A stretch of 64,000 bases of DNA. It comes from a virus. The position numbers and the translations under genes are program-made. The notes under the pieces were generated by a model. That model ran no database searches. It saw nothing but the letters and a program-made list of their open reading frames with translations, and was not told where the DNA came from. Below, piece by piece: positions 668 through 30,378 of the stretch (its first letter is position 1; the number at the start of each line of letters is the position of its first letter). The stretch lies in IMG/VR virus record IMGVR_UViG_3300020037_009719, positions 1,663-65,662 of that record. One strand, 5' to 3'.

Positions 668-671
668 TTTT

Positions 672-1469: not shown

Positions 1470-1496
1470 GAAACATTTTTACATTCAGGAGAGAGA

Positions 1497-1531
1497 AGCT
1501 ATTTAAGTAAATTAAATAGCTTTTTCTTTTT
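1497..1531 (+). terminator. rho-independent terminator
   Basis: agctatttaa-gtaaa-ttaaatagct 10-bp perfect stem followed by a T-run. Confidence 0.6.
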
Positions 1532-1582
1532 CTTGTTATTCTAACCTAGTTTTAACATATTTAAGTTTAAACATTATACTTA

Positions 1583-2230
1583 ATGAATAAATTTGAAAAT
1601 TTAGAAGGTGGAGAATTAGCAGCTCGCTTAACTTCTGCACAACGTATGGATTTAATCCAAAAAGGTTATAATCCTTTATCACCGGAAGATGTTCAACGCT
1701 ATTTAAAAAGACAAAAACCTGCTGAAGGTTTACATGAAATAGCAGGTGTAAATCAATACAAACGTTTAGGTGGTGGGTTAGATTTAGCAGCTGAAGATAG
1801 GGGTTTAGTTGGTGATGATTATAGTGGATTTACAGAGTCAGCAGACCCAAGACAAGTTATGAAAGAGAAAATGAATAACTCTGGTAATTCATTTGGTAAA
1901 GATTTAGATCAAAGATTAATGTCTCGTTTAGGTGATTCTTTTCAAGAAAAGAAACAACCTAAATCTTTGCAAGATGATTCTTATAAAAAAGCAACTTTAA
2001 TTACAGAAGCTAATAAAGCTAAAAATATAGGGTATACAATAGGTGTTCGTTATATTAATGCTTTTATTGAAAATATAAAAAATCCAAGTGCAAACAGTAG
2101 AGCTGTAATTGCAAAAGAGATGTCTAATATGCAACAATTGGAAAGTAAAATGCACTCTTCAGTATTAAAAGAATATAGAGCTGGGATTGCACAAGCTGAA
2201 ACTGATTTATATTCAAAGATAAAAAAATAA
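1583..2230 (+). CDS. hypothetical protein
   Basis: 215-aa ORF, no recognisable motif. Confidence 0.5.
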   Translation: MNKFENLEGGELAARLTSAQRMDLIQKGYNPLSPEDVQRYLKRQKPAEGLHEIAGVNQYKRLGGGLDLAAEDRGLVGDDYSGFTESADPRQVMKEKMNNSGNSFGKDLDQRLMSRLGDSFQEKKQPKSLQDDSYKKATLITEANKAKNIGYTIGVRYINAFIENIKNPSANSRAVIAKEMSNMQQLESKMHSSVLKEYRAGIAQAETDLYSKIKK

Positions 2231-3255: not shown

Positions 3256-3334
3256 TTTTAAGTTGGTAGAAAGAAAAAAGTGCCTATATTTAGCTATGTG
3301 ATAGTTAATAAAACCTATTAAAGGTTAAAGATAT

Positions 3335-3407
3335 ATGCGGGGTGGTGTAATTGGAAGCACGATGGGCTCATTATCCATAGATTTCGTTCGAGTCGGACCC
3401 CGCACCT
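3335..3407 (+). ncRNA. tRNA-like element (degenerate tRNA, CAT anticodon loop?)
   Basis: TGCGGGG...CCCCGCA 7-8 bp closing stem. D-like hairpin GTGT-AATTGGAA-GCAC. Anticodon-like hairpin ATGGG-CTCATTA-TCCAT. T-arm does not fold canonically. Confidence 0.3.
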
Positions 3408-3449
3408 AGGTAACTCTTTGAAATTTTGCATATTTATTGTAAAATATAA

Positions 3450-4103
3450 ATGGCAAATTTCAAAGAGACAAAAAAACACCATTACCTATATAAAACTACG
3501 AATACACTTAATAATACCTATTACATAGGTATTCATTCAACAAACAATTTAGACGATAATTATCTTGGTTCTGGGACAAGACTGTGGAGAGCTATCCGAA
3601 AACATGGTAAAGAAAATTTTAAAAAAGAAATTTTAGAATATTTTGACTCAAGAAAAGTTTTGTTGCAAAGGGAATCAGAAGTTGTAAATTCTGACTTGTT
3701 AAAAGAACCTTTATGTATGAATTTAAAACCAGGTGGAGGAAGTTGTGGTTTTTGTAGTGAGGAGCATGCATATAAATTCCATGCTGCAGGTGGAAGGGCT
3801 GTAAGGAGATTATTATCACTCAGACACAGTGAAAAAATGAAAACTGACCCTGAATATAAAAGTTTTTTTCGACAAAGAATAAGAGATTCTTACAAAAACA
3901 GGTATGGGTCTTTTAAAGGTAGAACTCATAGTGATGAAGTAAAGGTAAAAATTGGTAAAACAAACAGTATAAAGCAAAAAGGGGAAAAGAACAGTCAATA
4001 TGGAACTTGCTGGGTTACTAAAGAAGGAATAAATAAAAAAATTAAAAAAGAAGAATTAGATACTTTTACTTTACAAGGTTGGAGTAAAGGTAGGTTTAAA
4101 TAA
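3450..4103 (+). CDS. GIY-YIG homing endonuclease
   Basis: N-terminal YLYKTTN...YYIGIHST (GIY-YIG-type) motif and a basic C-terminal DNA-binding region. Confidence 0.7.
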   Translation: MANFKETKKHHYLYKTTNTLNNTYYIGIHSTNNLDDNYLGSGTRLWRAIRKHGKENFKKEILEYFDSRKVLLQRESEVVNSDLLKEPLCMNLKPGGGSCGFCSEEHAYKFHAAGGRAVRRLLSLRHSEKMKTDPEYKSFFRQRIRDSYKNRYGSFKGRTHSDEVKVKIGKTNSIKQKGEKNSQYGTCWVTKEGINKKIKKEELDTFTLQGWSKGRFK

Positions 4104-4125
4104 TAGAAAACTATTTTTATCTTGA

Positions 4126-4160
4126 AAAAGCTCCAAAGTTTTGGAGCTTTTTCTTTTTTT
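4126..4160 (+). terminator. rho-independent terminator
   Basis: aaaagctccaaa-g-tttggagctttt hairpin followed by a T-run. Confidence 0.65.
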
Positions 4161-4240
4161 ATTGTTTTTCTTCTATATGTTTCATATCTTTACTTAAACA
4201 CAAATTAAACAAAGTGTTAAAAAAAATTATTAATATAATA

Positions 4241-5473: not shown

Positions 5474-5522
5474 GTAAGAAAAAATTGTTAGTTCTATGAT
5501 ATTTAAAAGAAAGTGACTAACA

Positions 5523-5867
5523 ATGGCTCAAGATTTGATTATAGGTCAAGAAAAAAACTTCATTCAAGAATATCATGCAAAATTAAAAGTTTTGCAAAAT
5601 ACTATCCCTGATGATTGGACTTATTATACTAAAGTCACAATCTCTACTGCTGTGTTAAATAACTTTTATGAGTTAAATGTTTTATTCCACCCGCAAAGTT
5701 TAAGTAAACATAAAACATGGAGTAAACCTGCAATTTCAGATAAAGAGTTGAAAGAAACGTTACAAGATATAATTACTTATGAACTTTCCACAGAATCTTG
5801 GTTACTTTCACAAATTGAATTAGAGAAAACTATCCTATTGTTTCGTAAAATAGAACAAAAGCTATAA
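5523..5867 (+). CDS. hypothetical protein
   Basis: 114-aa ORF. Confidence 0.4.
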   Translation: MAQDLIIGQEKNFIQEYHAKLKVLQNTIPDDWTYYTKVTISTAVLNNFYELNVLFHPQSLSKHKTWSKPAISDKELKETLQDIITYELSTESWLLSQIELEKTILLFRKIEQKL

Positions 5868-5920
5868 CTTAAGTTTATTTTAAACGTTCTTTTTCTTATT
5901 TTTACGATAAATAAAATACA

Positions 5921-8900
5921 ATGGAAAAGATTCATGTTTGCTCATCACCTAATTGTTCCCATTCTTCTCATAAAAATAGACCAATGGTCAACCCACATAT
6001 TCACAGTGGGTTTTCTTTATTAGACGGGGCAGCTAAAACAAGTGATTATATAAAGTTAGCTAAAGAATATGGACATCCAGCTTTAGCTATAACAGATCAT
6101 GGTAACCCAGCTGGTTTGTATGACCATTATAAACAGGTTAAAGCTGCAGGTTTAAAACCTATCTTAGGGGAAGAGTTTTATTTAGCATTAGATATTACAG
6201 AAAGAGTTCCTAACAGATTAAGAGAACCTCATAAAAGAGATAAACATCAAACAGTTTTAATTCAAAATCAAGAAGGTTATAAAAACTTCTGTAAGTTAAC
6301 ATATTTGAGTTTTACAGAAGGTTATTATGCAAAACCTAGAATTGATTATGACATGTTGTTTCAATATGGAAATGGTTTAGTTATAACTTCTGGTTGTGCG
6401 GCTAGTATTTTCAATCAACTATTAAATTTAGGGAAAGAAACAGAAGCAGAAGAATGGTTTGTTAAATTTGTTAAACGATTTGGTGCTAATTTTTATGGAG
6501 AGATACAGTTTAATGAATTGTTAGACAAAGAAAAGTATGGTATGAATCAAAAACAAATGAATGATTTTATCATTAAAATGTCTAACAAGTATGATATACC
6601 TTTATTAATTGGTGGAGATACTCATTATGCTTATAAGGAAGATGCAAAATTGCAAGACGTGTTAATTGCAGCACAAAGACGTAAAGACGGGGTTGCAGAA
6701 GTAGAAGAGGATAATGAAGAAAAGAAAAAAGATTTTATTATTCATGCAAGACATTTATACTATCATCAATCAGAAGATTATTATAATTTCAACAAAGAGT
6801 TTGGTTACAATTATGATGAAGGTTTGATAACTCAAGCTTTAGATAATTCTATTAAGTTAGCTGATTCAATAAATTTTGAATTTGAAACAGGTAAAGTTAA
6901 CTTCCCTAAATTCAACACGAATGACCCTAAAAAAACTTCTCATCAATTATTAGAAGAGCATGCTTGGGCAGGTTTGATGCAAAAACTACAACTTAGAAGA
7001 GATAAAGGGGAAGAAATCTCTAATGATAAAATTACTGAATATGAAAAACGATTAGATTACGAATTAGAAGTAATTAAAGATAAACAATTTAGTGATTATT
7101 TTTTAATTGTAGAAGATTTATTGAAATGGGCACGTCAAGAAGGTATTGGTGTAGGTGTTGGTCGTGGTTCTTGTGGTGGTAGTTTATTAGCATACGCTTT
7201 AGATATTATTGCTCTTTCACCTGTTAAGTATGATTTATATTTCGAACGTTTTCTTAACCCACAAAGAGAAAGTGCTGTAGATATCGATTTAGATATTGAA
7301 AATGGTGGTAGGGAGAAAATTAGACATTACTTAGAAGATAAGTATGGTAAAGAATCTGTTTTAGGTGTAGTAACTTTCCATTTATATGGACCTAAATCAG
7401 CATTACAAGATGCATCAAGAGGGTTGAAGAGAGATACTTCTTTTGAGTCTACATTAATGAAAGAGGTTACAAAGTTACCTGACTTAGATGAACAAAAAGA
7501 TTTAGTAACATATTTCCAAAAAGTATATAAAACTTCAACTTCTGAAACAGTTTTAAAGTGGTGTGAAGACAATCAAGATACAATTCTTTACGCTAATAAA
7601 TTGTTAGGTCAACCTAAAAATCTAGGAACTCATGCTGGTGGAATTTTAATTGCCCCAGGGCCTGTTTATGATTATATCCCTGTTACTAGAGGAGGTGGTG
7701 AGGTTGTTACTGCATTTAAAGAAGCAGATGGTTCATCTAAAGATTTATCTGAACTAGGATTATTGAAGTTAGATGTTTTAGGTTTGAGAACATTAAACGT
7801 TATAAATAATTGCGTTAAAAAAATTAAAATAGATTTAGGTGTAGATTTAAAACAAGAAATATTAGACTTAGATTTGAGTAACCCTGAATTGTTTGAATTG
7901 ATTCAAAAAGGTAATTTGTATGGTTTATTTCAATTAGACGGAGGAGCTTCACCTTTGGTTAAGATGATTAAACCAAATCGATTTGAAGATATTGTAGCTA
8001 TTAACTCTTTAAATCGACCAGGTCCACTAGAAACATTTGGACCTGTTTATGCAAAGTGGAAAAGACATTATGAAGAAGGGAAACCAGAAAAGTGTAAAGA
8101 AGATGAAATTTACCCTAAACTAGACTTTATGTTGAAAGCAACAAAAGAAAGTTATGGTGCATTAATTTTCCAAGAACAATTTATGTTTATGGTCAAAGAT
8201 GCAGCAGGGTTTAATTTAGGTGAAGCAGATAATTTTAGAAGAGCTATTGCTTGGACTAAAGATCATCCTAAATATTATACAGTGAAAAAATACTTTGATA
8301 CATTAGAAACAAAAATGCTTGAAAAAGGTTATTCCCAAGCAGACGTTGATTATTTTGTTGATTATTGTAGAAAATTCATGGGTTATTCTTTTAATAAATC
8401 CCATGCTTTGTTCTATAGTTATACAGGTATGCAATGTGTTTACTTAAAAAAGTATTACCCTGCATATTTCTATGCTGAGTTAGCTAATGTAGAAAGTCAT
8501 GAAAAGATAAGAGAAATTGTAGTTGATGCAATAGCAAATGGAATTAATGTTTTAGCTCCTTCTGTTACTAAATCACAACATGGATTTTCAGTTGAAAATG
8601 AAAAAACTATCAGAATGGGTTTCAATGCTTTAAAAGGTTTTGGTGACAAGGCGTATGAAGAATTAGTAACCCTTAAAGTTAGTGATAGTAAAAACATTTA
8701 TGATATTTTAACTTTACCATTTAAAAAATTAAACGTATCTGCATTTCAATCTTTAATAGATGTAGGTGCATTCGATGAGTTTGGTGTTGAGAGAGAAAAG
8801 ATTGAAAGTATAAGAGCTTTATATAAAGACCCAAAAATAGAAAAATGGTTTACTCGTAAAAGAAAACCATTAGACTTAACAACTATGCCACCTTCTTTAT

Positions 8901-9379
8901 TAGATTTCCCTGAAGAAGTTGTTATGGGGTTAGCAGAAAAACATAAAGATGATCCGGATCATTGGAAAAAACTAATTCATGAATTAATTCCTTTCATTAA
9001 AGTTAAACCTCTTAAAGAAGAGGTTAAAAATAATCGTGAGGAAAACATATTAGGATTTAGTTTAAAACAGGTAAGTAGTTTAGCGGAGTTACTTACTTTA
9101 GCAGAAAAATACCCTACCTTAAACTTAAAATCTCTAAGTCTTCATAATAATGAATCAGATTTATGTTATTGGAGTTTGGTAAAAAGAACTGTTCTAAAAA
9201 CAAAAAGGGGAAAAGAATATTTAAACTTAGAAATATCTGACGGTAGTACCACAATAAAAGCTAAATGTTGGGATATGCTTGATTTGAAAAAAGGAAAAGC
9301 ATACGTAAGTAATTTGAAAAAAGATTTATACGGGTATACTATTATTAACAATGGTTTATTAACAGAGATAGATTTGTAA
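5921..9379 (+). CDS. dnaE: DNA polymerase III alpha subunit (DnaE-type, N-terminal PHP domain)
   Basis: 1152 aa. PHP motifs HIHSGFSLLDGA and ALAITDHGN. Central polymerase core with GDxHY-like 'LIGGDTHYAY'. C-terminal OB-like region. Alternative start at 5984 (MVNPHIHS). Confidence 0.85.
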   Translation: MEKIHVCSSPNCSHSSHKNRPMVNPHIHSGFSLLDGAAKTSDYIKLAKEYGHPALAITDHGNPAGLYDHYKQVKAAGLKPILGEEFYLALDITERVPNRLREPHKRDKHQTVLIQNQEGYKNFCKLTYLSFTEGYYAKPRIDYDMLFQYGNGLVITSGCAASIFNQLLNLGKETEAEEWFVKFVKRFGANFYGEIQFNELLDKEKYGMNQKQMNDFIIKMSNKYDIPLLIGGDTHYAYKEDAKLQDVLIAAQRRKDGVAEVEEDNEEKKKDFIIHARHLYYHQSEDYYNFNKEFGYNYDEGLITQALDNSIKLADSINFEFETGKVNFPKFNTNDPKKTSHQLLEEHAWAGLMQKLQLRRDKGEEISNDKITEYEKRLDYELEVIKDKQFSDYFLIVEDLLKWARQEGIGVGVGRGSCGGSLLAYALDIIALSPVKYDLYFERFLNPQRESAVDIDLDIENGGREKIRHYLEDKYGKESVLGVVTFHLYGPKSALQDASRGLKRDTSFESTLMKEVTKLPDLDEQKDLVTYFQKVYKTSTSETVLKWCEDNQDTILYANKLLGQPKNLGTHAGGILIAPGPVYDYIPVTRGGGEVVTAFKEADGSSKDLSELGLLKLDVLGLRTLNVINNCVKKIKIDLGVDLKQEILDLDLSNPELFELIQKGNLYGLFQLDGGASPLVKMIKPNRFEDIVAINSLNRPGPLETFGPVYAKWKRHYEEGKPEKCKEDEIYPKLDFMLKATKESYGALIFQEQFMFMVKDAAGFNLGEADNFRRAIAWTKDHPKYYTVKKYFDTLETKMLEKGYSQADVDYFVDYCRKFMGYSFNKSHALFYSYTGMQCVYLKKYYPAYFYAELANVESHEKIREIVVDAIANGINVLAPSVTKSQHGFSVENEKTIRMGFNALKGFGDKAYEELVTLKVSDSKNIYDILTLPFKKLNVSAFQSLIDVGAFDEFGVEREKIESIRALYKDPKIEKWFTRKRKPLDLTTMPPSLLDFPEEVVMGLAEKHKDDPDHWKKLIHELIPFIKVKPLKEEVKNNREENILGFSLKQVSSLAELLTLAEKYPTLNLKSLSLHNNESDLCYWSLVKRTVLKTKRGKEYLNLEISDGSTTIKAKCWDMLDLKKGKAYVSNLKKDLYGYTIINNGLLTEIDL

Positions 9380-9819
9380 TGTCTTTAGAGGATTTAATAG
9401 AAAAAAGCGTTAAAGATGAAAAAAGGATAAGGGAAGAACACTTAGTGTTAGAAAGCTATCAACGTTCTAACCCTTGGGTCGTAAATTCTTTATTATCTCA
9501 ACTAGAAGAAGAAGGGTATCCAAAGATCCCTTCTTTTGAAGAAGCAGTTTCCTTAAGAGAAGAATATCTTTTAACTGATTTAAGTAAAGTATACTCGCAA
9601 ATAAAAAAACGTAACCCTTTATTGATTGATAGAGGGCAAGAAGAAGTTTATTTTTATTCTGTCAAAAAAAATCTATATAAACAACAACAAAAAAAAGGTT
9701 TATCTTTAGGGGATAAAGATACTAGTGGAAATTTAGTATCAGGTAGCAATATTGTCTTAGAAGTAGCTACTGTTAACCTGAAAGATTTTCTATATACTTA
9801 TTATCAAACAAGAAATTAA
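9379..9819 (+). CDS. hypothetical protein
   Basis: 146-aa ORF ATGA-coupled to dnaE. Confidence 0.45.
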   Translation: MSLEDLIEKSVKDEKRIREEHLVLESYQRSNPWVVNSLLSQLEEEGYPKIPSFEEAVSLREEYLLTDLSKVYSQIKKRNPLLIDRGQEEVYFYSVKKNLYKQQQKKGLSLGDKDTSGNLVSGSNIVLEVATVNLKDFLYTYYQTRN

Positions 9820-10799: not shown

Positions 10800-13648
10800 T
10801 ATTTAACCTTATCTATTAAACTTTGTTTAACTAAAACAGATGAACTAGAAGCTGTTGCAGCGGTTGCTTTTGTGTTAACGTTTCTATTTGCAATCTCTCC
10901 TAGGTTGTTGTTATCTTGTTTTGTAACCTCTTGAGCAAAGTTGTTTCTACCATCAGCAGAAGAAAATTTCTTATTATCTTTTTTACCTTCCTTTTCCACA
11001 TCTTCATTAAGTTTTAATATTCTAGCTCCAATGATTGAAGATGTAAATTTATGACCTGATAATTTATGAGTTACTTCTAGTATTTGATATTCTCCATCAA
11101 AGAAACCCAAACCTTTAACAAAAATTCTTTTACCTGGACCTAACCAAGGATGAGCTAAACATTCTATAGTACAGTTTTGAAATTGGGAGAAAACAATTGT
11201 TAAATTTCTTTTTTTATCTGCAACTGTAACTGGTTTATTATATTCATCATTGTTGTTTACTTCATCTAAACTTGCTAAATCAGCAACTTGATTGTTAGCT
11301 GCAATAGATGCAGCATTAGGGGTACTTGTTTTTTCTACATTTAACGAAGTAATTAACGAACCTTGAAACCTGTAAGAAAACACATCTTTCTCTTCAATAA
11401 ACGTTTGTATAGTAGCTTGTTTAGGGGAATTACTAAACTCATTATCTCTATTAATTTGTTGTTGAGGTTTAGCATATAGTTTATCTGCAGCTAATGTAGT
11501 TGCTATAATCCAAGTAGAATTAATACCTGCACCTGAACCAGTAGCTGCAGATAACAATTCACATTCATTTTCTTGTAATACAGTTCTCAACCAGCGTAAA
11601 ATTGTCCATTTATCATCTGAATTTTGCGGTGTGAATAACTGTTTATATTGATCTTTAGGAATTGTTAGTAAAATTTGGTCTGGGTGAATTTGATCTTGAT
11701 TACCACCTTGCTCACCTCCAATAATACTTAAAAAATTACTAAAATCTCTTGACGTTGCTCTTGCTTTAATATTTTGTTCACTATATTGTCTTCTTTTATT
11801 TCTTTCTGCTGAATCAGTAATTTGAATTAATTGAGAGTTGTTAACGTCCATCATAACATTTAAAATCAATTCACCCAAAGTAATAGTTCTACCTTTCTTT
11901 AAAGTGTTTCGTGTAAAGATTGCGAAGTCTAAAGGGTAATTGAAAACTATAGACCCTGTAGTTCTAAAACTTAAAGCTGCATGTAAAGCTCCTTTATCAT
12001 CCATCGACAACTCAGGATTTAATAAAGCAATTTTAACATAATTACTCATATCTAAGTTTGTACGTGAAACTACTACTTGACCATTTTCTTCATTAAATGT
12101 AATACCATCATCAAACAAGTTTAATGTACCAGCAGTGTAATTACTTTCTGTATTAATAGATTGAGTTAATGTGATTACATTTTTCCCTGGTATTAGTTGA
12201 TTAGCTATTTTATTTCTAAAACTTCCATTTTCATCATCGAAAACAGCCCAACCAGGGTGATTCCAAAACTTTACTGAATTTGGATCATCTTTATCGTTCG
12301 GACTTGGAACTCTTATTTGCCAACCATATCTAAACCAAAAATCACCACCTACGTTTCCTGGACGAACATCATAAATGAAAGACCAAGGTGAATTTATATC
12401 TGTGAATTTATTACCTTGAACATCAACTAAAGTCATTTTAATTAATGTTAATCCGTTATCAGCTGTTTTACCAGCTTGAATTTCTAAGTCTTGGAAGCCG
12501 ATAGCTCCTGGTTTCGAAGCAACCCCATCGACAGGTGAAGGTGATAATACTAATTGACCGAACACTCTAACACCTACTCCTCTTTGAGCAAACACTTTCT
12601 TTCCACTTTCTGACTGTTCACCAATAAAATCAATACCTTCTTTAAAAGGGTCTAAGTTATATAAGTCTGCAATTCCCTTAGAATTGTTTTGAATATCAGC
12701 TGTTAAATTAAATCTTTCTTGAGAAAAACCTGGGGCTACTTCGTTTTGATATTTTGTAGCAGCGTTTTTAATTGAAGATAAGAGATTGCTTTTCTTATTA
12801 GAAGATTTACCTGTTGTATTGTCTTGAACATCTTCTGGAGTTTCACCTTCAGAAGCATAACCAGTAGGGTCTACAGTTATATCAGGAATAAGTTCAATGA
12901 AAGGGAAAACACTTTGAGGTGTATATCTAGTTGCGAGATAAAGTAAAAACTGTTTTAATCCAATCCAATCACTATCTTCATCAGAAGAAGATTTCTTCCC
13001 CCATGTTGCAGTAGTATCACTCAACTCTTGATTTCCAATGTTATTTGCAATCTGTTGAAAAGTATCAGTTAAATCCTGTCCTGCTTGTGTTTCATCAGCA
13101 GATGTTTCTTGAGTGTTTTCACCTGTAGAAACGTCACTCGTTGTGTTAGTTTTCTTTTCATCAGATGTTCTAGTATCTGATTCAGTTTCTCTAGAATAAG
13201 TAATCGTTATCGTTTCACTATTTGCTAATGCATTTTGAATTGAATTGAATACAATATTTAACGCTGTTCTAGAGTCACCAATAATATCAGTTCCTTTGGT
13301 CATACCAACCAACAAACAACCTTCAGTAGCAGTAGCATTGTTTCCAACGTGAATACGAATACCTTCAAACCCTTTAACAGAATTAACTAATGGTAATTGT
13401 TTTTGTCCACCAATAACTCTTTCACCAACACCTGTCAATCCAGTAGGTGTTACAGTTACTCTGTATGAACCTAAAGGTATTGCAGTTTTCTTTGCAATTT
13501 TAATATTTTTTATCTCACTAACACTCATACTATTAGTTAAGTCTCTATCTTTATCTTCTAAAGTGTGACAAATGAACGTTCCATTGATTAACAAATCACC
13601 AATAGTAGTATTATTAGTTAAGGTTTTTCTTATTACTCGAATTTCCAT
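10799..13648 (-). CDS. large virion-associated protein with N-terminal L,D-transpeptidase (YkuD)-like His/Cys motif
   Basis: 949 aa. N-terminus ...GIRIHVGNNATATEGCLLVG matches the YkuD hIHG...(S/T)xGC(I/L) active-site pattern. Ser/Thr-rich linkers. Confidence 0.4.
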   Translation of the reverse strand: MEIRVIRKTLTNNTTIGDLLINGTFICHTLEDKDRDLTNSMSVSEIKNIKIAKKTAIPLGSYRVTVTPTGLTGVGERVIGGQKQLPLVNSVKGFEGIRIHVGNNATATEGCLLVGMTKGTDIIGDSRTALNIVFNSIQNALANSETITITYSRETESDTRTSDEKKTNTTSDVSTGENTQETSADETQAGQDLTDTFQQIANNIGNQELSDTTATWGKKSSSDEDSDWIGLKQFLLYLATRYTPQSVFPFIELIPDITVDPTGYASEGETPEDVQDNTTGKSSNKKSNLLSSIKNAATKYQNEVAPGFSQERFNLTADIQNNSKGIADLYNLDPFKEGIDFIGEQSESGKKVFAQRGVGVRVFGQLVLSPSPVDGVASKPGAIGFQDLEIQAGKTADNGLTLIKMTLVDVQGNKFTDINSPWSFIYDVRPGNVGGDFWFRYGWQIRVPSPNDKDDPNSVKFWNHPGWAVFDDENGSFRNKIANQLIPGKNVITLTQSINTESNYTAGTLNLFDDGITFNEENGQVVVSRTNLDMSNYVKIALLNPELSMDDKGALHAALSFRTTGSIVFNYPLDFAIFTRNTLKKGRTITLGELILNVMMDVNNSQLIQITDSAERNKRRQYSEQNIKARATSRDFSNFLSIIGGEQGGNQDQIHPDQILLTIPKDQYKQLFTPQNSDDKWTILRWLRTVLQENECELLSAATGSGAGINSTWIIATTLAADKLYAKPQQQINRDNEFSNSPKQATIQTFIEEKDVFSYRFQGSLITSLNVEKTSTPNAASIAANNQVADLASLDEVNNNDEYNKPVTVADKKRNLTIVFSQFQNCTIECLAHPWLGPGKRIFVKGLGFFDGEYQILEVTHKLSGHKFTSSIIGARILKLNEDVEKEGKKDNKKFSSADGRNNFAQEVTKQDNNNLGEIANRNVNTKATAATASSSSVLVKQSLIDKVK

Positions 13649-24003: not shown

Positions 24004-24528
24004 ATGAAAGAAGTAAGATTATGTGCTAATCAAGAGTGTGGTAAAGAGTTCACTGTTTGGTCTTCACAAAAGAAGAGATATTGTTGTAGAAAGTGCACAA
24101 TGACTTTAGAAAGGCGAGAGTCAATAAGACAAGAGAAAACTGGAAAACCAAACCCCAAAGTATCAATTGCACTGAAAAATTCTATTTCAGCTAAAAAATA
24201 TCAATTTAAAAAGGGAAAAGACAATCCAGCATTTGGACGAAATCAAACAGGTGAAGCAAATCACAATTGGAAAGGTGGAAAAACAAATAAGAATCAAAAA
24301 TTAAGAAATAGTCCACAGTATAAAATTTGGCGACAAGCTTGTATGGAACGAGATCACTTTCAATGTACTGATTGTGGTGCAAAGGGATATTTACAAGTAC
24401 ATCATATAAAAGAGGTCTCTAACTACCCTGAACTTATTTGGGAACTTGATAACGGAAAAACAGTTTGCGTGTCGTGTCACGAAAAAATACACGGAAGATT
24501 TATAGGAAAATTTAAACAACAAAAATAA
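24004..24528 (+). CDS. HNH homing endonuclease
   Basis: N-terminal Cys-rich region; HHIKEVSNYPE...NGKTVCVSCHEKIH HNH motif. Confidence 0.75.
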   Translation: MKEVRLCANQECGKEFTVWSSQKKRYCCRKCTMTLERRESIRQEKTGKPNPKVSIALKNSISAKKYQFKKGKDNPAFGRNQTGEANHNWKGGKTNKNQKLRNSPQYKIWRQACMERDHFQCTDCGAKGYLQVHHIKEVSNYPELIWELDNGKTVCVSCHEKIHGRFIGKFKQQK

Positions 24529-25421
24529 TGGAAAATAAAAAAAAATATGCCTGTATAAGTTTATCAGGTGGGATGGACTCTTCTACTTTACTTCTTAAAT
24601 TGTTAGTTGAAGGTTATAATGTTACTGCTTTATCTTTTAATTACGGTCAAAAGCACTCTGTAGAATTAGAAAGAGCAACTGAATTAGTGAAATATATTAA
24701 ATCAGATTCAAAAGGGGCTGGAAAAAGACAATCTGGAACTTTAACTCATCAAATTATTAAACTAGATGGTTTAGGACAATTGTTAAATTCAACTTTAGTT
24801 GAAGGTGGTTCAGATGTTCCAGAAGGGCATTATGCTGAAGAAAATATGAAAGACACGGTTGTGCCAAATCGTAATAAAATATTTTCTTCAATTATTCAAG
24901 CAGTTGCTTTATCTATAGCAGAACAAAATAATACTGAATGCGCTATTGCTATGGGTATTCATGCTGGTGATCATGCTATCTACCCTGATTGTAGACAAGA
25001 GTTTAGAGATGCAGATTTTGAAGCTTTCAAACAAGGTAATTGGGGGTCTGAAAAAGTAATCATCTATACTCCTTATCTTCATACTGATAAATTCGGTATT
25101 TTAGAAGATGGGTTAGTTTGTTGTGAAAAGTTAAGTTTAGATTTTAACGAAATATATAAACGTACTAATACAAGTTATAAGCCAATTTTTATCAGAGAAG
25201 TTTCTAAACAAACAATAGACGATAAAGACTATTACACCCCTGAAAGTAATGGTAAATGGTATTCAGATTATAAGTCAGCAAGTTCGGTAGAACGAATAGA
25301 AGCATTTATTAAATTAGGTAAACAAGACCCAGTTGAATATGCTGATGAAACAGGACCTGTTTCATGGGAAACAGCAAAAGCTTATGTAGAGAAAGTTCTC
25401 GCTGAACATAGTAATAAATAG
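24528..25421 (+). CDS. queC: QueC-like PP-loop ATP pyrophosphatase (7-cyano-7-deazaguanine synthase family)
   Basis: ISLSGGMDSST (SGGxDS PP-loop), FNYGQKH, VPNRNKIF, YPDCRQEF all align to E. coli QueC. The C-terminal CxxC Zn cluster is absent and the C-terminus is extended. Confidence 0.7.
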   Translation: MENKKKYACISLSGGMDSSTLLLKLLVEGYNVTALSFNYGQKHSVELERATELVKYIKSDSKGAGKRQSGTLTHQIIKLDGLGQLLNSTLVEGGSDVPEGHYAEENMKDTVVPNRNKIFSSIIQAVALSIAEQNNTECAIAMGIHAGDHAIYPDCRQEFRDADFEAFKQGNWGSEKVIIYTPYLHTDKFGILEDGLVCCEKLSLDFNEIYKRTNTSYKPIFIREVSKQTIDDKDYYTPESNGKWYSDYKSASSVERIEAFIKLGKQDPVEYADETGPVSWETAKAYVEKVLAEHSNK

Positions 25422-26071: not shown

Positions 26072-26143
26072 TTTTATATATCTTTAGTAAAAAATAAATT
26101 TAAAGTTCTGAACCTCGCATTACATATACACCTTGTTATACAC
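26072..26143 (+). promoter_or_regulatory. leader of cassette array: TATCTTTAG -10-like box plus a GTTRRRY-like half site
   Basis: atatctttag at 26080-26090; acatatacaccttGTTATAc at 26122-26143 matches the right arms of the downstream inverted-repeat elements. Confidence 0.35.
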
Positions 26144-26199
26144 AGTACGGTTTATTAATGTTGAATGCTGATACAAAGAATAATTAAAATTAAAAAAAT

Positions 26200-26532
26200 A
26201 TGCACAAACAAAAGGAAGTAAAAATAAATGTTGATGATAAAATACAACCACTAATTCAATTTATATTTGATAGATTAACTGGTTTGATACCAATAGCATC
26301 TTGTATAGGTGGAGATGAATCACAAAACGAAAGTATGGATTGTTATATACTACTAATAGTTAGGAATCATAATCATCTAAATCATCTAATGGATTTATGT
26401 TCATCTTGGCATTGTCAGTATATCAAACCAAATGGTGAAACTGGAAATGTACCAACATATAGAATAAGTATTTCTAATTTAAACGATGTGTTGGATAAAT
26501 TGAATTTGATAGATGAAAATTATATTTTTTAA
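26200..26532 (+). CDS. hypothetical protein (first array ORF)
   Basis: 110-aa ORF, preceded by a 9-codon uORF in the cacggtttattaATG motif. Confidence 0.45.
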   Translation: MHKQKEVKINVDDKIQPLIQFIFDRLTGLIPIASCIGGDESQNESMDCYILLIVRNHNHLNHLMDLCSSWHCQYIKPNGETGNVPTYRISISNLNDVLDKLNLIDENYIF

Positions 26533-26646
26533 TTTACACCGAACTTAATTTGATACACGAATATAGTATTGTGTATAACGTTCGGGCGGTTGGCGTTCGT
26601 TGCCGACTTTGGAACAAGAAACTTTAACTTTAAAAATAAATTTGAT
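26533..26646 (+). repeat. degenerate inverted-repeat element (attC-like, divergent)
   Basis: ccgaac-ttaatttg-atacac ... gtgtat-aa-cgttcgg inverted repeat; ATAACGttcgg and ggttggcg echo the CTAACGGTTGGC motif. Confidence 0.35.
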
Positions 26647-26889
26647 ATGGAAAACAAAACTTCAACAAGCCACGAAAACGGCAATGACGCTAACCGCTTG
26701 TTAGCACCAGTTATTTTTTGGCAACGCTTTGACCAAGTTAAACCACAAGGCGATGCGGAATATTTGGTGTGCAATACAGATGGCGTTATTCGAGTTAGTT
26801 ACTTTGATGGCAAAGATTGGGGATATTTAGCTATTGTAAAAGAAAATATTACGCATTGGTCAATACTTCCGAGTGTGCCAGTCATATAA
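26647..26889 (+). CDS. hypothetical protein (cassette ORF, GC-richer than the genome)
   Basis: 81-aa ORF from ATG 26647 (track start 26569 lies inside the repeat). Contains an internal GCTAACcgcttGTTAGC mini-palindrome. Confidence 0.45.
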   Translation: MENKTSTSHENGNDANRLLAPVIFWQRFDQVKPQGDAEYLVCNTDGVIRVSYFDGKDWGYLAIVKENITHWSILPSVPVI

Positions 26890-26893
26890 TTGG

Positions 26894-26986
26894 TGCTAAC
26901 GGTTGGCAATATATGTAGTTGCCATGCACGAACTTAAAAATTAAATATAAACCTTAATAGGCAATTACATATATTGCTTGTTAGCA
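26894..26986 (+). repeat. attC-like imperfect inverted repeat element 1
   Basis: Left arm tgCTAACggttggcaatatatgtagttgcc; right arm ggcaattacatatattgcttGTTAGCa. Arms pair 7+12+5 nt with ggttg/aa asymmetry (3-nt bulge). Confidence 0.6.
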
Positions 26987-26998
26987 AATCGTAAAATT

Positions 26999-27154
26999 AT
27001 GGCATCAGAGAAGAAAAAACGTAAAGCAGATAAAAGACTTCATTGGGGTAGAGGTAAGAACTTCATGAAGTGGGTTGGTAAAGGCATCAAAGGTCTTTGT
27101 TATTTCACATCATCTCAAAGACAAGCAGATAAGAAGTTCGACATTGACGAATAA
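26999..27154 (+). CDS. hypothetical small basic protein (cassette ORF)
   Basis: 51-aa ORF MASEKKKRKADKRLHWGRGKNF... between two attC-like elements. Confidence 0.35.
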   Translation: MASEKKKRKADKRLHWGRGKNFMKWVGKGIKGLCYFTSSQRQADKKFDIDE

Positions 27155-27163
27155 TTTTATGTT

Positions 27164-27257
27164 TGCTAACGGTCGGCAATATGAAATGGTTGCCTTGTAA
27201 GACGTTTAAAATTTAGTAATAGCCTATCGGCAACTTTTTTATATTGCTTGTTAGGCA
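27164..27257 (+). repeat. attC-like imperfect inverted repeat element 2
   Basis: tgCTAACggtcggcaatatgaaatggttgcc ... ggcaacttttttatattgcttGTTAGGCa; same bulged architecture. Confidence 0.6.
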
Positions 27258-27271
27258 CAGTAATTTATCAA

Positions 27272-27529
27272 ATGAAAATATATCAAACAAATGCAGCACT
27301 TGGTTATAGACAACTTGCATTTCTAATTAGATTAGATAAAAGTGCGAATGGACACAACTACCTATGTATAGGCACACAAAATATTAATGACAACGAAATG
27401 TATCAAATTGGTAAAATAGTTGAAGATTTAGAAGATTTTTATTTGGAAGATACAACTTTCAAAATAACTGATTCTGAATTAAACGGAACTTATCTGTTTG
27501 ATTACTGGGTTTCTCATTATTGTGCCTAA
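27272..27529 (+). CDS. hypothetical protein (cassette ORF)
   Basis: ATG 27272 (track start is TTG inside the repeat). Stop TAA lies inside the GCCTAAC inverse-core-like motif. Confidence 0.45.
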   Translation: MKIYQTNAALGYRQLAFLIRLDKSANGHNYLCIGTQNINDNEMYQIGKIVEDLEDFYLEDTTFKITDSELNGTYLFDYWVSHYCA

Positions 27530-27618
27530 CGGTTGGGTGTATGAGAAGGTTTGCTTAGATGAACTTTCAAATTAATACAAATACATGTAGCAAACTTTCT
27601 TATACACCTTGTTATATG
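27524..27618 (+). repeat. attC-like imperfect inverted repeat element 3
   Basis: GCCTAACggttgggtgtatgagaaggtttgct ... agcaaactttcttatacaccttGTTATAt. Confidence 0.6.
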
Positions 27619-27652
27619 CTTGCACGGTTTATTAATGATAAAATTAATTAAA

Positions 27653-27985
27653 ATGAAAAAGTTTAAATTTGAAGATTTACAATTAATTAATGTAGGCGAT
27701 ATTTATGCTATTACTTATAACGATAAAATAATTACCCTTGAAGGTAAAACCACATTTTCGACAATAAGTAATGCGAAAAATATGCTTCAAAAAGTATTAA
27801 CTGCTAATTATCATCAAGGACATTATTGGCACAAAGGTAAAGAAAATACCTTTTCTGATGAAGGTGGGCATATGAGAAACGGGGGTGTTATGGCTGGTTT
27901 GGATAAAATATTTAAAAAATTAGGCAAAGAACTAACTGAAGAATTACTTTCTAATGGCGTTTTTGTGATTAAAAAAATACAATAG
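27653..27985 (+). CDS. hypothetical protein (cassette ORF)
   Basis: ATG after the conserved cacggtttattaatg motif. Confidence 0.45.
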   Translation: MKKFKFEDLQLINVGDIYAITYNDKIITLEGKTTFSTISNAKNMLQKVLTANYHQGHYWHKGKENTFSDEGGHMRNGGVMAGLDKIFKKLGKELTEELLSNGVFVIKKIQ

Positions 27986-28013
27986 TAATTTAGTAGCACG
28001 TTTGTAGTGCTTG

Positions 28014-28107
28014 CATATAACGGCTTGGTGTATGAGAAGGTTTGCTTTGATGAACTTCAAATTTACACTGAACTTGATAGCAAACTTTCTCATACACCTT
28101 GTTATAG
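28014..28107 (+). repeat. attC-like imperfect inverted repeat element 4 (near-duplicate of element 3)
   Basis: cATAACggcttggtgtatgagaaggtttgct ... agcaaactttctcatacaccttGTTATAg. Confidence 0.6.
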
Positions 28108-28151
28108 TTAGTTTTATTTTTTATTTTACAAAATTATAAATTTTCATAGAT

Positions 28152-28451
28152 ATGACTGAAGAACAAATGAAAGAATATGTAGTAAATGGTGGAAAACTTT
28201 TTACTATCACTTTGATTGACACTATTAGAGATGGTGGAACAAAGATTATAAAAACAACAAAAGACGATTATTATATCCATAAGGATAGTAAAAAGTTTCA
28301 TTCTGGTTACACACCAAGTGAAGAAAATTTAATAACAGATTTTTTGTTAATAGAATACTTGGTTGAACGAATTGAAACATACATCAAAAGATGTGTGGAA
28401 GATGTTGAACGAAACAAAAATCTGTTAATAGAAATTCAAAATAAAAAATAA
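28152..28451 (+). CDS. hypothetical protein (cassette ORF)
   Basis: 99-aa ORF. Confidence 0.45.
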   Translation: MTEEQMKEYVVNGGKLFTITLIDTIRDGGTKIIKTTKDDYYIHKDSKKFHSGYTPSEENLITDFLLIEYLVERIETYIKRCVEDVERNKNLLIEIQNKK

Positions 28452-28457
28452 TATTAA

Positions 28458-28529
28458 CTATAACGGTTCGCAGATAAGCGAAGGCAAAGATTTAGAAACT
28501 AAAATTTTAACTTAAAAACAGAATATAAT
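28458..28529 (+). repeat. degenerate attC-like element 5
   Basis: ctATAACGGttcgcagataagcgaaggc hairpin; right arm not recognisable. Confidence 0.3.
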
Positions 28530-28778
28530 ATGAAAACGAGAACATCAATTTACCACCGCACCTTTGCTTTTGCTTATGTGCTGTTAGTAGCTGTTATTTT
28601 TTGCGGTTGCGAAGGTAACGTAGAGCAGAAATCAACACCATATAGGCTTAGTGGCGGTCTTAATGTAGAAATAGTGATAATTGATAGTTGCGAATACATC
28701 ATAATAAATGGTGGAAATGCAACTTGGGGAAGCCACAAAGGGAACTGTAAATTTTGTGCAGAACGTAGCAAAAAATAA
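28530..28778 (+). CDS. putative lipoprotein (cassette ORF)
   Basis: Signal peptide with an FCGC lipobox-like cysteine; GC-richer. Confidence 0.45.
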   Translation: MKTRTSIYHRTFAFAYVLLVAVIFCGCEGNVEQKSTPYRLSGGLNVEIVIIDSCEYIIINGGNATWGSHKGNCKFCAERSKK

Positions 28779-28780
28779 TT

Positions 28781-28879
28781 GCTACTAACGTTTTGCGTAT
28801 ATACGAGGTACGCCTTAACGAAAATTTCAAATTATAAACAAATGCTTGTAGGCGTATCTTGTATATACGCTGTTAGGCG
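28781..28879 (+). repeat. attC-like imperfect inverted repeat element 6
   Basis: gctaCTAACgttttgcgtatatacgaggtacgcc ... ggcgtatcttgtatatacgctGTTAGGCg. Confidence 0.6.
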
Positions 28880-28890
28880 AAGTACTTATT

Positions 28891-29130
28891 ATGGATTTTA
28901 GAAAAACATTAAAATACCTACGCATTGTGCAAACGGTATCAAACGAAGAAAGGCACAAACAAGGATTGAAAAGATTAGGTCGTGGCTATTTCAATGCACA
29001 CAGATTTAACCCTTACAATCCGCTTAGTTACATAGCACTCATTATTATACTAATTGTAGGTATATTAATGTTTGGCTTTGTCGGATTTTGGAAAGAAACT
29101 ACAACGCTCAATCCGTTTCGGTGGGATTAG
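28891..29130 (+). CDS. hypothetical membrane protein (cassette ORF)
   Basis: 79-aa ORF with a C-terminal TM helix. Confidence 0.45.
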   Translation: MDFRKTLKYLRIVQTVSNEERHKQGLKRLGRGYFNAHRFNPYNPLSYIALIIILIVGILMFGFVGFWKETTTLNPFRWD

Positions 29131-29136
29131 TATTTC

Positions 29137-29213
29137 GCCTAACGGTATCAAGCTAAAAGCTGACCGCCTTTATAAGCGGTTTGGTGATGGCGGTTTGATT
29201 TTAGGTTGTGTTA
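29137..29213 (+). repeat. attC-like imperfect inverted repeat element 7
   Basis: GCCTAACggtatcaagctaaaagctgaccgcc ... ggcggtttgattttaggttgtGTTATAt. Confidence 0.5.
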
Positions 29214-29238
29214 TATTTAGGTTTTTAAATTTTTAGCG

Positions 29239-29448
29239 ATGGAAGAAATGATAAATTGTAAATGCGAAAAATGCGGAGTTGATTACGAGAAACCTGCAAC
29301 TTTCAAAAAATGGAATGAAGAAAATACAAACGTGTTTTTTAGATGGAGTTTAGCATTTTGCGATATGTGCAGGCGAGAAAAAGAACGTGAAGCATTGAAA
29401 GCATTACCAAATGTTTTGAGTGCGTTGGCAGAAAATTTAAAAACTTGA
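29239..29448 (+). CDS. hypothetical Cys-rich small protein (last array ORF)
   Basis: 69 aa with CxC...CxxC...CxxC. Confidence 0.4.
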   Translation: MEEMINCKCEKCGVDYEKPATFKKWNEENTNVFFRWSLAFCDMCRREKEREALKALPNVLSALAENLKT

Positions 29449-29510
29449 ATATAACATAAATATATAACAACTGTCTTTTAAAACAGTAATAAAATTAACA
29501 GTTTTAAGTC

Positions 29511-30326
29511 ATGGAAACACTCATTGAAAGTAAAGTTAATCGATTTGTTGAAAAGTTAGAGTTAAAACGTTACTCTAAAAACACAAAAAATATATATCTT
29601 TCAAACTTTAAATCTTTTTTAAACTATTTTAAAGGAGATATAGATAATTTAAAAGATTCAGATATTTGTAATTATATTTTAACACAATCTAAAAACAAGT
29701 CGTACTCTTATCAAAATGTGTTAACAAATACTATTAAATTTTATTACGAAAAGGTAAATTATAGAAAAAGAAGGTTTTATAAAATAGAAAGACCTAAACA
29801 AGAAAGAAAGTTACCACAAGTGATTTCTAAAGAAGAAGTTTTAAAATCTATAGAGTTAATACCTAATTTAAAACATAAAGCAATAATTTCACTAGCTTTT
29901 TCTACTGGAATGAGAGTAAGTGAGATATGTAATTTGAAAATAGTAGATATTGATTCAAAGAGAATGATTTTAAGAATTTTAGATAGTAAAGGTAAAAAAG
30001 ATAGAATAGTTCCTTTATCTGAAAGTATACTAACTTTGTTGAGAAGTTATTGGCAAGAATATAAACCTAAATTTTATTTATTTGAATCCTATAAACCTGG
30101 GGTTAAATATTCGACAGCGAGTTGTAGACAAATATGGAATAAATATAAAATAAATAAGCAAAGTACTTTTCACACTCTTAGACATAGTTTTGCTACAACT
30201 ATGTTAGAAAATAAAACTGATATTAGGACAATTCAAAGACTTTTAGGTCATTCTAATTTGAAAACAACAGAAATATATACCCACGTTTCTACTGATTATT
30301 TGAAAACTTTAAAGTTACCTATATAA
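29511..30326 (+). CDS. tyrosine site-specific recombinase (integrase/XerC-D family)
   Basis: MRVSEI (Arg I), HTLRHSFAT (HxxR), LLGHS, IYTHV (catalytic Tyr). Confidence 0.8.
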   Translation: METLIESKVNRFVEKLELKRYSKNTKNIYLSNFKSFLNYFKGDIDNLKDSDICNYILTQSKNKSYSYQNVLTNTIKFYYEKVNYRKRRFYKIERPKQERKLPQVISKEEVLKSIELIPNLKHKAIISLAFSTGMRVSEICNLKIVDIDSKRMILRILDSKGKKDRIVPLSESILTLLRSYWQEYKPKFYLFESYKPGVKYSTASCRQIWNKYKINKQSTFHTLRHSFATTMLENKTDIRTIQRLLGHSNLKTTEIYTHVSTDYLKTLKLPI

Positions 30327-30352: not shown

Positions 30353-30378
30353 GTTTACTAATTATACTGTATCTTTAG
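30353..30378 (+). promoter_or_regulatory. GTTTAC-N11-TATCTTTAG promoter-like motif
   Basis: Exact consensus; 24 nt upstream of the ATG at 30402. Confidence 0.5.

Follow-up and report, generated by a model that had tools for sequence, protein, structure and literature searches.

A putative integron-analogous gene-cassette array beside a XerA-like tyrosine recombinase gene in a large uncultured phage

Organization of the locus

The stretch of DNA analyzed here, hereafter the window, comprises 64,000 nucleotides from a large uncultured phage (IMG/VR record IMGVR_UViG_3300020037_009719, positions 1,663 to 65,662), and genes for a DnaE-like polymerase and a tail protein mark it as viral. Our subject is an array of small open reading frames (ORFs) and imperfect hairpins at 26108-29455, together with the gene for a XerA-like tyrosine recombinase (29511-30326, 271 aa) that follows it. 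Here, nine ORFs (51-110 aa), all on the + strand, as are the other features placed in the window below, have between them eight complete TAAC...GTTA imperfect inverted repeats. Six of these repeats span 74-90 nt, while the two long-loop elements, E1 (26576-26703) and E6 (28461-28586), span about 125 nt and contain in their loop the ATG of the ORF that follows. The G+C content is about 30% across the window, with no compositional break at the array, and a megablast search of the region against cultured phages returned no match, and hence no close cultured phage. An earlier note, made from the letters alone, had described an integron-like array of eight ORF-plus-repeat units ending at the recombinase gene. 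The features it listed are all present, among them the boxes, the GCCTAAC sequences at 27524 and 29137, and a stop codon (27527-27529) within the first of these, though its count fell short of the nine ORFs and eight full elements, as both long-loop elements had been missed.

Upstream of the array lies a promoter-like motif, TATCTTTAG (26079-26087), whose next copy (30370-30378) is found just past the recombinase gene. The opening element, E0 (26108-26138), is truncated, with a partial loop, a right arm, and GTTA (26135-26138), but neither left arm nor TAAC, and resembles the right portion of full elements at three of the other loci compared in this study (L009, L024, and L036, in our numbering). 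Both the motif and the GTTATA half-site at 26135 had been placed ahead of the first cassette by the earlier note, and rightly so. Described from one TAAC to the next, and with the covariance model bit scores, fold z-scores, and flank complementarities that are explained further on, the units are as follows. Unit 1 has a body (26139-26579) made up of a 5' untranslated region (5'UTR), ORF1 (26200-26532, 110 aa), and a tail with TAAC at 26576-26579; flank complementarity between its two ends, GTTA-TACACAGTACGG and TAGTATTGTGTA-TAAC, is 9/12. Unit 2 (26580-26900) comprises the long-loop E1 (GTTA at 26700-26703; model match at 26568-26712), ORF2 (26647-26889, 80 aa), which starts at an ATG in the loop, and TAAC at 26897-26900 (flank complementarity of 10/12). 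Unit 3 (26901-27170) contains E2 (GTTA at 26980-26983), ORF3 (26999-27154, 51 aa), and TAAC at 27167-27170 (88.9 bits, z-score of -4.3, 8/12), and unit 4 (27171-27530) E3 (GTTA at 27250-27253), ORF4 (27272-27529, 85 aa), and TAAC at 27527-27530 (94.8 bits, 10/12).

Further along, unit 5 (27531-28021) consists of E4 (GTTA at 27611-27614), ORF5 (27653-27985, 110 aa, with an alternative ATG at 27635), and TAAC at 28018-28021 (109 bits, 9/12). Unit 6 (28022-28464) has E5 (GTTA at 28101-28104), ORF6 (28152-28451, 99 aa), and TAAC at 28461-28464, scores 99.8 bits, and is bounded by 27-nt terminal inverted repeats that are 93% complementary. Unit 7 (28465-28789), with 22-nt terminal inverted repeats, includes the long-loop E6 (GTTA at 28583-28586), ORF7 (28530-28778, 82 aa, ATG in the loop), which has a lipoprotein-like signal peptide, and TAAC at 28786-28789. 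Unit 8 (28790-29143) holds E7 (GTTA at 28872-28875), ORF8 (28891-29130, 79 aa), and TAAC at 29140-29143 (90.5 bits, z-score of -5.1, 10/12), and unit 9 (29144-29455) holds E8 (GTTA at 29210-29213), ORF9 (29239-29448, 69 aa), and TAAC at 29452-29455 (59 bits), with 28-nt terminal inverted repeats of 89% complementarity. The array ends in this lone TAAC, which is followed not by a hairpin but by ATAAATATATAAC, and which lies 55 nt 5' of the recombinase ATG; we regard the segment at 29452-29510 as a putative attI-like site.

Hairpin structure and folding strand

When folded, the six mid-sized elements gave z-scores between -2.3 and -6.4 on the + strand, and 15 of the 26 pairs in their alignment carry compensatory changes. 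Within the 64-kb window, a covariance model built from these six matches the array only, and also recovers both long-loop elements. In an alignment of 150 elements from many contigs, 94.6% of the stem cells are paired, as against 65.7% in shuffled alignments and 33-51% with slid partners, and 1041 double-sided changes compare with 351 in the shuffles, though this alignment had been fitted to the model and is hence biased towards pairing. With that proviso, the covariation for which the earlier note had called as a check is found. An exact TAAC...GTTA is present in 147 of the 150 elements, and the elements behave as attC sites do, in that their ends fit RYYYAAC/GTTRRRY and their structure is kept over their sequence; several unrelated stem sequences are present within the window alone. 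By TAAC-to-GTTA span (alignment A2), the 150 elements fall into size classes of about 45-50 nt (n = 22), 60-99 nt (n = 78), and 110-135 nt (n = 50). Some stem types, such as GGGTGTATGAGAAGGTTTGCT, are 85-92% identical across contigs with recombinases that are only about 50% identical. A motif in the loop was considered as a minus-strand Bacteroidetes -7 box and rejected, since a check by eye was inconsistent between elements.

The constant 3-nt asymmetry of unpaired bases that was noticed at the outset is seen in the larger set as well. Here, the commonest form has 5 nt after TAAC and 2 nt before GTTA (69 of 142 elements), and a 3-nt difference occurs in about 100 of the 142. The additional bases sit on the TAAC arm, which is also the arm of the crossover box proposed below.

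As to which strand folds, we defined the stems by Watson-Crick matches alone, a criterion that is strand-symmetric, and then counted the remaining stem positions as they read on the TAAC-to-GTTA strand. These comprised 251 G.T against 10 A.C oppositions, with G.T in excess of A.C in 135 elements and the reverse in none. The TAAC-to-GTTA strand is thus the one that has been selected to fold, and presumably also the one that recombines. Moreover, in bacterial arrays with ORFs on the other strand (L105 and others), it is again the TAAC-to-GTTA strand that carries the bias (20 versus 2). As the bias is kept despite the opposite ORF orientation, these comparisons favor hairpins that fold as a DNA strand rather than as mRNA.

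Cassette ends and crossover position

The ends of each unit pair with each other and not within an element. Specifically, the 12 nt leading up to TAAC, read against the reverse complement of the 12-nt stretch that follows the preceding GTTA, agree at 8-10 of the 12 positions in all nine units (mean of 9.6), whereas the same 12 nt match the GTTA flank of their own element at only 3.9 positions and those of other elements at 4.1 (permutation p <=1e-5). Independent arrays on other contigs behave likewise, with values of 7.35 for the previous element, 4.46 for the same element, and 4.09 for unrelated ones. The sites in the array are therefore chimeric, which is the prediction of a cassette system with its crossover inside the conserved box.

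Comparisons between related loci place the breakpoints at the same box (a slash marks the break). In L066 and L079, with backbones that are about 94% identical, the recombinase-proximal cassettes differ, with identity breaking off after GGATAACG and returning at TAAC/AATAATATG (TAAC/AATAATATGTAAAC) ahead of the recombinase gene. A 1015-nt TAAC...TAAC block common to L027 and L089 adjoins the recombinase gene in L089 but lies 2 kb upstream of it in L027, as though more recent cassettes had come in between. The L009 and L045 arrays, both on one 246-kb contig, have in common a 234-nt cassette of 99% identity, bounded as TAAC/...TAAC/ and set among unrelated flanks. Unit 7 of the window (28465-28789) is also found in L051, where the recombinase is 49% identical, with identity running from TAAC/GGTT to TACTAACG/. 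A systematic list of breakpoints agrees, and in all, more than 10 independent comparisons place boundaries at TAAC.

Judging from these breakpoints, the mobile unit is predicted to consist of hairpin, GTTA, 5'UTR, ORF, and TAAC, with crossover at TAAC. A crossover at the 5' TAAC box would in turn mean that a hairpin belongs to the ORF downstream, and not, as the earlier note had supposed, to the ORF it follows. The G/TTA boundary that had been suggested there for cassette shuffling is likewise rejected, both by the variant comparisons and by the ORFs that start in loops. Of the 49 long-loop elements, 28 have a loop ATG from which an ORF reads on through the right arm and GTTA, as fits a unit boundary at TAAC but not one at G/TTA. 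In both long-loop elements of the window, the right arm together with GTTA codes for the N-terminal end of the ORF that follows (26647-26720, …LLAPVIFW; 28530-28604, …LLVAVIFCGC), the second of these stretches encoding the lipoprotein-type signal peptide of ORF7, and leaders of the form 'ME[NT]KTS…' recur in other contigs. Given the recurring leaders and the loop ATGs, start codons and leader peptides appear to be supplied by conserved site DNA.

Two further observations concern cassette composition. An ORF-less mini-cassette of about 75-90 nt, bounded by GTTATATTTAG…AAATATAAC, occurs twice in the L009 array (7884-7960 and 9316-9393), and a 75-nt copy of it, 100% identical, is present in L045 (5912-5986). 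In addition, unit 3 of the window (over 26980-27170) and a cassette of L009 (9024-9236) have identical termini (GTTAGCAAATCGTAAAATT-ATG … TAATTTTATGTTTGCTAAC) around unrelated proteins of 51 and 58 aa, respectively.

The recombinase and its adjoining site

The recombinase contains the Pfam domains Phage_integrase and Phage_int_SAM_4. Its top NCBIfam model is XerA_Arch, at 206.7 bits and thus below the cutoff of 220, while the integron-integrase model TIGR02249 gives 167.8 bits (cutoff of 265) in a match that is split in two pieces. The best relatives in the PDB are archaeal XerA (4a8e, 3.7e-40, colinear) and 5hxy. When aligned with IntI4 (2a3v), residues 178-210 of the recombinase correspond to residues 178-256 of IntI4, i.e., 32 versus 78 residues with about 46 missing, and the IntI-specific insertion is therefore absent. 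By this defining feature the protein is, on alignment, not an integron integrase but XerA-like, and on this point the integron-type reading of the earlier note is not supported. The recombinase is intact, with its catalytic residues (Arg135, Lys160/Lys163, His221, Arg224, His247, and Tyr256) invariant among 13 homologs. Nor does the locus fit a Xer/dif system, in which a XerC/D/A-type recombinase serves a single dif site of ~28 bp with two inverted arms, as the sites here are arrays of 45-135-nt hairpins. A tblastn search with the recombinase against cultured phages gave identities of no more than 40% (Ingeline and Freya). We infer that this enzyme would catalyze the movement of the adjacent cassettes.

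Upstream of the recombinase gene is a conserved TAAC/TAYTATATRTAAA. The last TAAC is followed by tAttATATaTaaa instead of a hairpin at 44-46 of 51 loci, where it is mostly found 36-52 nt 5' of the start codon of the recombinase gene. As would be expected of an attI, identity between related phages resumes exactly at this last TAAC, while the cassettes next to it differ. TAAC/tAttATATaTaaa is thus a candidate attI-like site, at which new cassettes would enter the array.

Distribution and turnover

Recombinase homologs number in the thousands. In IMG/VR, 77 loci with relatives of the recombinase (42-62% identity) were examined, and the covariance model found 237 matches in 59 of them, 223 on the plus strand. 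The 14 minus-strand matches mirror strong plus-strand ones, and every independent match is upstream of the recombinase gene and co-oriented with it, with none downstream. Two arrays (L040 and L048) have at least 17-20 elements inside the 7 kb examined. At L009, about 9 kb separates one pair of element matches from the recombinase gene downstream of them. A T4-like jumbo phage contig that encodes Gp23 (246,115 bp; JGI 3300025030 Ga0209518_1000025) carries two complete modules, L009 and L045. The L009 module is flanked by a DNA_pol_B fragment (5476-7179) on one side and a DNA_pol_B_exo2/RNase_H_2 gene (10885-11625) on the other, and a family-B polymerase appears to be split around the array.

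The identical recombinase is encoded on fourteen metagenome contigs of up to 219,579 bp. Cassette turnover in related phages, which the earlier note had proposed to look for, is seen between L066 and L079 and between L027 and L089, but not among the eight places with an identical recombinase (L001-L008), where cassettes are in the same order except in L004 and L005. In these two, which are independent assemblies of one and the same phage, the DNA upstream of window position 27209 (mid-loop of E3) is replaced by unrelated, more G+C-rich DNA (L004 1-175, L005 1-159), and the downstream DNA is 99.9% identical. This unrelated stretch terminates in a Cys-rich ORF, with none of cassettes 1-3 in evidence, both contigs ending there; a metagenome search with this upstream sequence recovered only the same contig and no longer copy.

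Among cultured phages, the covariance model found no elements at the integrase loci of Ingeline and Freya. The isolates Freya_1-10 (L018 is Polaribacter phage Freya_10) have genomes of 43,978-48,920 bp, with the integrase, 33% identical to the window recombinase, at positions ranging from 71 to 4168, which suggests variable content upstream of the integrase gene.

Homologous recombinases are found in Bacteroidota genomes too. In some of them, such as Croceivirga radicis, Lishizhenia, and a Flavobacteriaceae chromosome, recombinase gene and ORFs share one strand and the elements lie on the other. The C. radicis HSG9 locus (L105, NZ_MTBC01000004, 6674-13500), as well as L100, L110, L111, and L120, encodes a 375-aa homolog with an N-terminal extension of about 105 aa, and the array comes after its gene. 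Homologs of this 375-aa class are named 'site-specific tyrosine recombinase/integron integrase' by NCBI. Bacterial arrays of the L105 type include some near-duplicate repeat units without an obvious ORF.

Cargo and expression

The 97 cassette ORFs taken from more than 30 arrays are mutually unrelated and have a median length of 94 aa. About one in ten matches Pfam, with DNA methyltransferase, GNAT acetyltransferase, ADP-ribosyltransferase, YopX, and several DUFs represented, while a search with the nine ORFs of the window gave zero Pfam matches.

The motif TATCTTTAG has 11 copies in the window (9701, 15687, 19882, 25519, 26079, 30370, 33588, 34690, 38634, 42229, and 45081), all on the + strand and usually shortly 5' of an ORF start, where 1.2 are expected; it is probably a phage promoter element, akin to the Bacteroidetes -7 box (TAnnTTTG). 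As copies at 26079 and 30370 bracket the array and recombinase gene and none lies inside, a single transcription unit is likely, with array and recombinase gene probably co-transcribed from the 26079 motif. Here, the arrangement departs from that of an integron with its Pc promoter, in that the ORFs face the recombinase gene and promoter-like motifs are located only at the distal end of the array (26079) and after the recombinase gene (30370). A scan for sigma-70 promoters, which leaves Bacteroidota-type promoters outside its range, gave 20 promoter-like sites against 25 expected, and thus no enrichment. In a terminator scan, none of the elements was terminator-like, as the T tail is missing, and the terminator/anti-terminator modules that the earlier note had offered as an alternative can be set aside. 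A search of the region against Rfam returned only sub-threshold microRNA and snoRNA noise, with no family matched.

Just 5' of the array (24004-25421), a QueC homolog (24528-25421) lies beside an HNH-like ORF. As genes of the 7-deazaguanine pathway, the two suggest modification of the phage DNA.

Discussion

We consider it likely that the array consists of TAAC-bounded cassettes that are moved by site-specific recombination involving the adjacent recombinase. The earlier idea of an integron-like array tied to this enzyme is upheld by the chimeric sites, the cassette differences between relatives, the insertion site, and the strand-selective folding, though it had to be revised with regard to the class of enzyme, the crossover box, and the ownership of the hairpins. 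Taken as a whole, the locus is probably an integron-analogous gene-cassette platform of a large phage, a non-IntI variant of the integron principle.

Integrons, the textbook gene-capture system, are defined by IntI with its special domain, and are rare in phages. The likeness is considerable: in both, single-gene cassettes are separated by imperfect hairpins with RYYYAAC...GTTRRRY ends, stems covary while their sequence varies, sites are chimeric with outer box bases from the neighboring cassette, the crossover is placed in the AAC/GTT box on the 5' side of the strand that forms the hairpin, and a simple insertion site lies beside the recombinase gene, at which end related genomes differ. Families of sites shared by unrelated ORFs are also a feature of the Vibrio VCRs. 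Nevertheless, comparison with integrons, the Treponema 'reverse' integrons and sedentary chromosomal integrons included, points to several differences. The phage recombinase is XerA-like and lacks the IntI-specific insertion; the phage ORFs are on the folding strand, with each hairpin preceding its own ORF and sometimes holding its start codon; the phage array is transcribed towards the recombinase gene, whereas integrons are transcribed from Pc at the attI/intI end; and the outer stem of the phage elements reaches 12-28 bp. In addition, the extrahelical bases of attC are on the arm opposite the crossover box, whereas the 5-versus-2 loop of the phage elements is on what would be the crossover arm. 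The bottom strand of canonical attC sites has its crossover box on the 5' arm, as would these elements on the strand that folds. On that reading, the bacterial arrays would have the canonical cassette layout, and the phage arrays would have their ORFs inverted relative to the sites. The hosts differ as well, being phages and Bacteroidota, in which canonical integrons are almost absent (Bacteroidetes are almost devoid of integrons according to IntegronFinder 2.0, 10.1101/2022.02.28.482270). Moreover, Cury et al. (PMC4889954) treated tyrosine recombinases without the IntI domain beside attC as not being IntI.

The earlier note had held that such a platform was undescribed in phages. This no longer stands for canonical integrons and attC clusters, as Qi et al. 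(2023; PMC9892861) described both IntI integrons, found in temperate phages, and 17 small attC clusters that lack an integrase, with IntI1 able to recombine some of the latter. Like the present arrays, those clusters are accompanied by small ORFs, are known from virulent phages (one of them a Polaribacter, and hence Bacteroidota, phage), and carry DNA methyltransferase cargo. Unlike these arrays, they are two to three canonical attC predictions without an integrase, or else true IntI integrons in temperate phages, and the sections consulted describe no phage Xer-like recombinase, attI-like site, or long arrays, nor the module of recombinase plus array. Our literature search, which is incomplete for subscription journals, turned up no description of hairpin cassette arrays linked to a Xer-like recombinase, whether in phages or in Bacteroidota.

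Two other Xer-related systems deserve mention. The attP(+) hairpin of CTX phage is a folded single strand acted on by a Xer-family recombinase, though in a single integration into dif by the host XerCD, and the pdif modules of Acinetobacter plasmids are gene modules bounded by Xer sites, though these are double-stranded sites of 28 bp in alternating orientation. To our knowledge, neither forms co-oriented hairpin arrays beside a recombinase gene of its own.

The nearest phage analog is the promoter/stem-loop modules (PeSLs) of T4-type phages (PMC2839356, PMC4122927). These are stem-loop modules that recur between the small non-essential genes of phage plastic regions and are shared between phages, with reports of gene shuffling and mini-circles. 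We find it unlikely that the array is a hyperplastic region of this sort, shuffled by homologous recombination with the recombinase gene as an incidental neighbor. Such a view would account for hairpin and 5'UTR modules that are highly conserved across contigs yet stand before unrelated ORFs with breakpoints at ATG; one related array is indeed in a T4-like genome that encodes Gp23, and mini-circles are on record for PeSLs (PMC2839356). But PeSLs, by the same accounts (PMC2839356, PMC4122927), carry a sigma-70 promoter and a terminator, are driven by homology, and have no dedicated recombinase. The phage elements, on the other hand, have neither the T tail nor any sigma-70 enrichment; their boundaries are exact at TAAC, with 4-5 nt shared and unrelated flanks, which homologous recombination does not predict; their unit ends pair with each other rather than within an element; and all of them are upstream of a conserved recombinase gene with a conserved site.

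It is quite unlikely that the hairpins are simply RNA structures in a polycistronic mRNA, for processing or stabilization of the RNase III type, with the pairing of cistron ends serving RNA processing. The 251 to 10 bias on the phage coding strand would fit, as would the better folding on the + strand of all six window elements tested and the position of the array between two promoter-like motifs with none inside. Yet the bacterial arrays keep their 20 to 2 bias on the strand opposite the ORFs, no Rfam family was matched, and the invariant TAAC and GTTA boxes, the TAAC-bounded differences in DNA, and the conserved site and recombinase are all left unexplained. The hairpins may, for that matter, have an RNA role in addition to a DNA role.

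We judge it very unlikely that the array is a remnant bacterial integron (CALIN) served in trans by a host IntI, next to an ordinary phage integrase or Xer resolvase with a site of its own. Its boxes do fit RYYYAAC/GTTRRRY, its recombinase is Xer-like, and canonical attC clusters that IntI1 recombines are reported from some phages (PMC9892861). Nevertheless, arrays accompany the recombinase at 59 of 77 homologous viral loci, in the same relative position and orientation and with a conserved site; one phage has two complete modules with a common cassette; the more distant Ingeline and Freya integrases are without such elements; and canonical integrons are all but missing from Bacteroidetes (10.1101/2022.02.28.482270). 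Lastly, it is most improbable that these are single-strand transposon- or MITE-like hairpins (IS200/IS605, REP/RAYT) inserting beside a tetranucleotide by means of an HUH enzyme encoded elsewhere, for although the hairpins are strand-specific with a conserved 4-nt boundary (TAAC) and occur in several size classes widely shared between genomes, within the window they are confined to one co-oriented array, those at the viral loci are almost all directly upstream of a tyrosine recombinase gene (the L009 pair excepted), the moving unit includes an ORF and self-complementary ends, and no HUH transposase is found among the called genes of L001, L009, and L013, a set not subjected to a dedicated search.

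Several observations weigh against site-specific cassette movement by the adjacent recombinase. First, hairpin and 5'UTR modules are common to cassettes with unrelated ORFs, with breakpoints at ATG; that of unit 5, for example, has 80-91% identity to modules in more than 12 unrelated contigs. It follows that the cassettes must in addition be shaped by a process without site specificity, for which cassette genesis and homologous exchange are possible candidates. Second, each of the three array starts examined (the window, L009, and the L004/L005 variant) has only the right half of an element, with the break inside the loop or close to it, which the model does not predict; these starts were judged by eye, since walking along arrays by complementarity missed too many elements. 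Third, the G.T bias in phages coincides with the coding strand, as an RNA structure would also give. Fourth, the recombinase lacks the IntI insertion, which the literature deems essential for integron function (Smyshlyaev 2021, PMC8138268, citing MacDonald 2006); the same authors found the insertion to be incompletely conserved in an 'integron-like' subgroup (PMC8138268). Fifth, the eight places with an identical recombinase keep their cassette order over the part covered, L004 and L005 excepted, and turnover at this scale is therefore slow.

If the cassettes are moved by the recombinase nonetheless, the course of events might be as follows. In an excised circular unit, the TAAC tail would join the unit's own hairpin and form one long bipartite stem. 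Its outer R box would pair ATTR-NNNN-TAAC with GTTA-NNNN-YAGT, including a conserved T.G wobble, the middle of the stem would have the asymmetric internal loop of about 5 nt versus 2 nt, and the inner L box (G-NNNN-TAT..., with a conserved TAT) would be topped by a variable loop. The XerA-like recombinase would cleave the folded DNA on its TAAC-to-GTTA strand, either at TAAC or inside it, and the cut strand would be exchanged either with another hairpin, as in excision and shuffling, or with the double-stranded TAAC/TAYTATATRTAAA attI-like site, as in insertion. An insertion junction would then read NNNN-TAAC/ATAAATAT, and new cassettes would accumulate at the recombinase-proximal end. Both the single-stranded substrate and the circular intermediates are presumed here. 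Classical exchange by tyrosine recombinases requires identical overlap regions. As the partner sites share only TAAC, the most plausible course would be a single-strand exchange resolved by replication, as is established for integrons (PMC3458562). The cargo itself amounts to a bank of varied small accessory genes.

On a broader view, we regard it as an even proposition that the arrays belong to a hitherto unrecognized and widespread family of integron-analogous gene capture in Bacteroidota phages and their hosts, characterized by a XerA-like enzyme without the insertion and by a cassette-borne hairpin and start module, which would be either an independent invention or an intermediate between Xer and IntI, and which would maintain an exchangeable accessory bank, possibly with a role in anti-defense. 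The hairpin and 5'UTR modules on unrelated ORFs bear on the old unsolved question of cassette genesis, and the recombinase, with its sites of about 50-130 nt, is a possible new tool for cassette assembly. If the proposal is true, the recombination of cassettes by way of folded hairpins would be possible without the IntI insertion, and there would be a handle on the origin of integrons from Xer recombinases. It would also account for how the large phages of this group gain and swap their small accessory genes.

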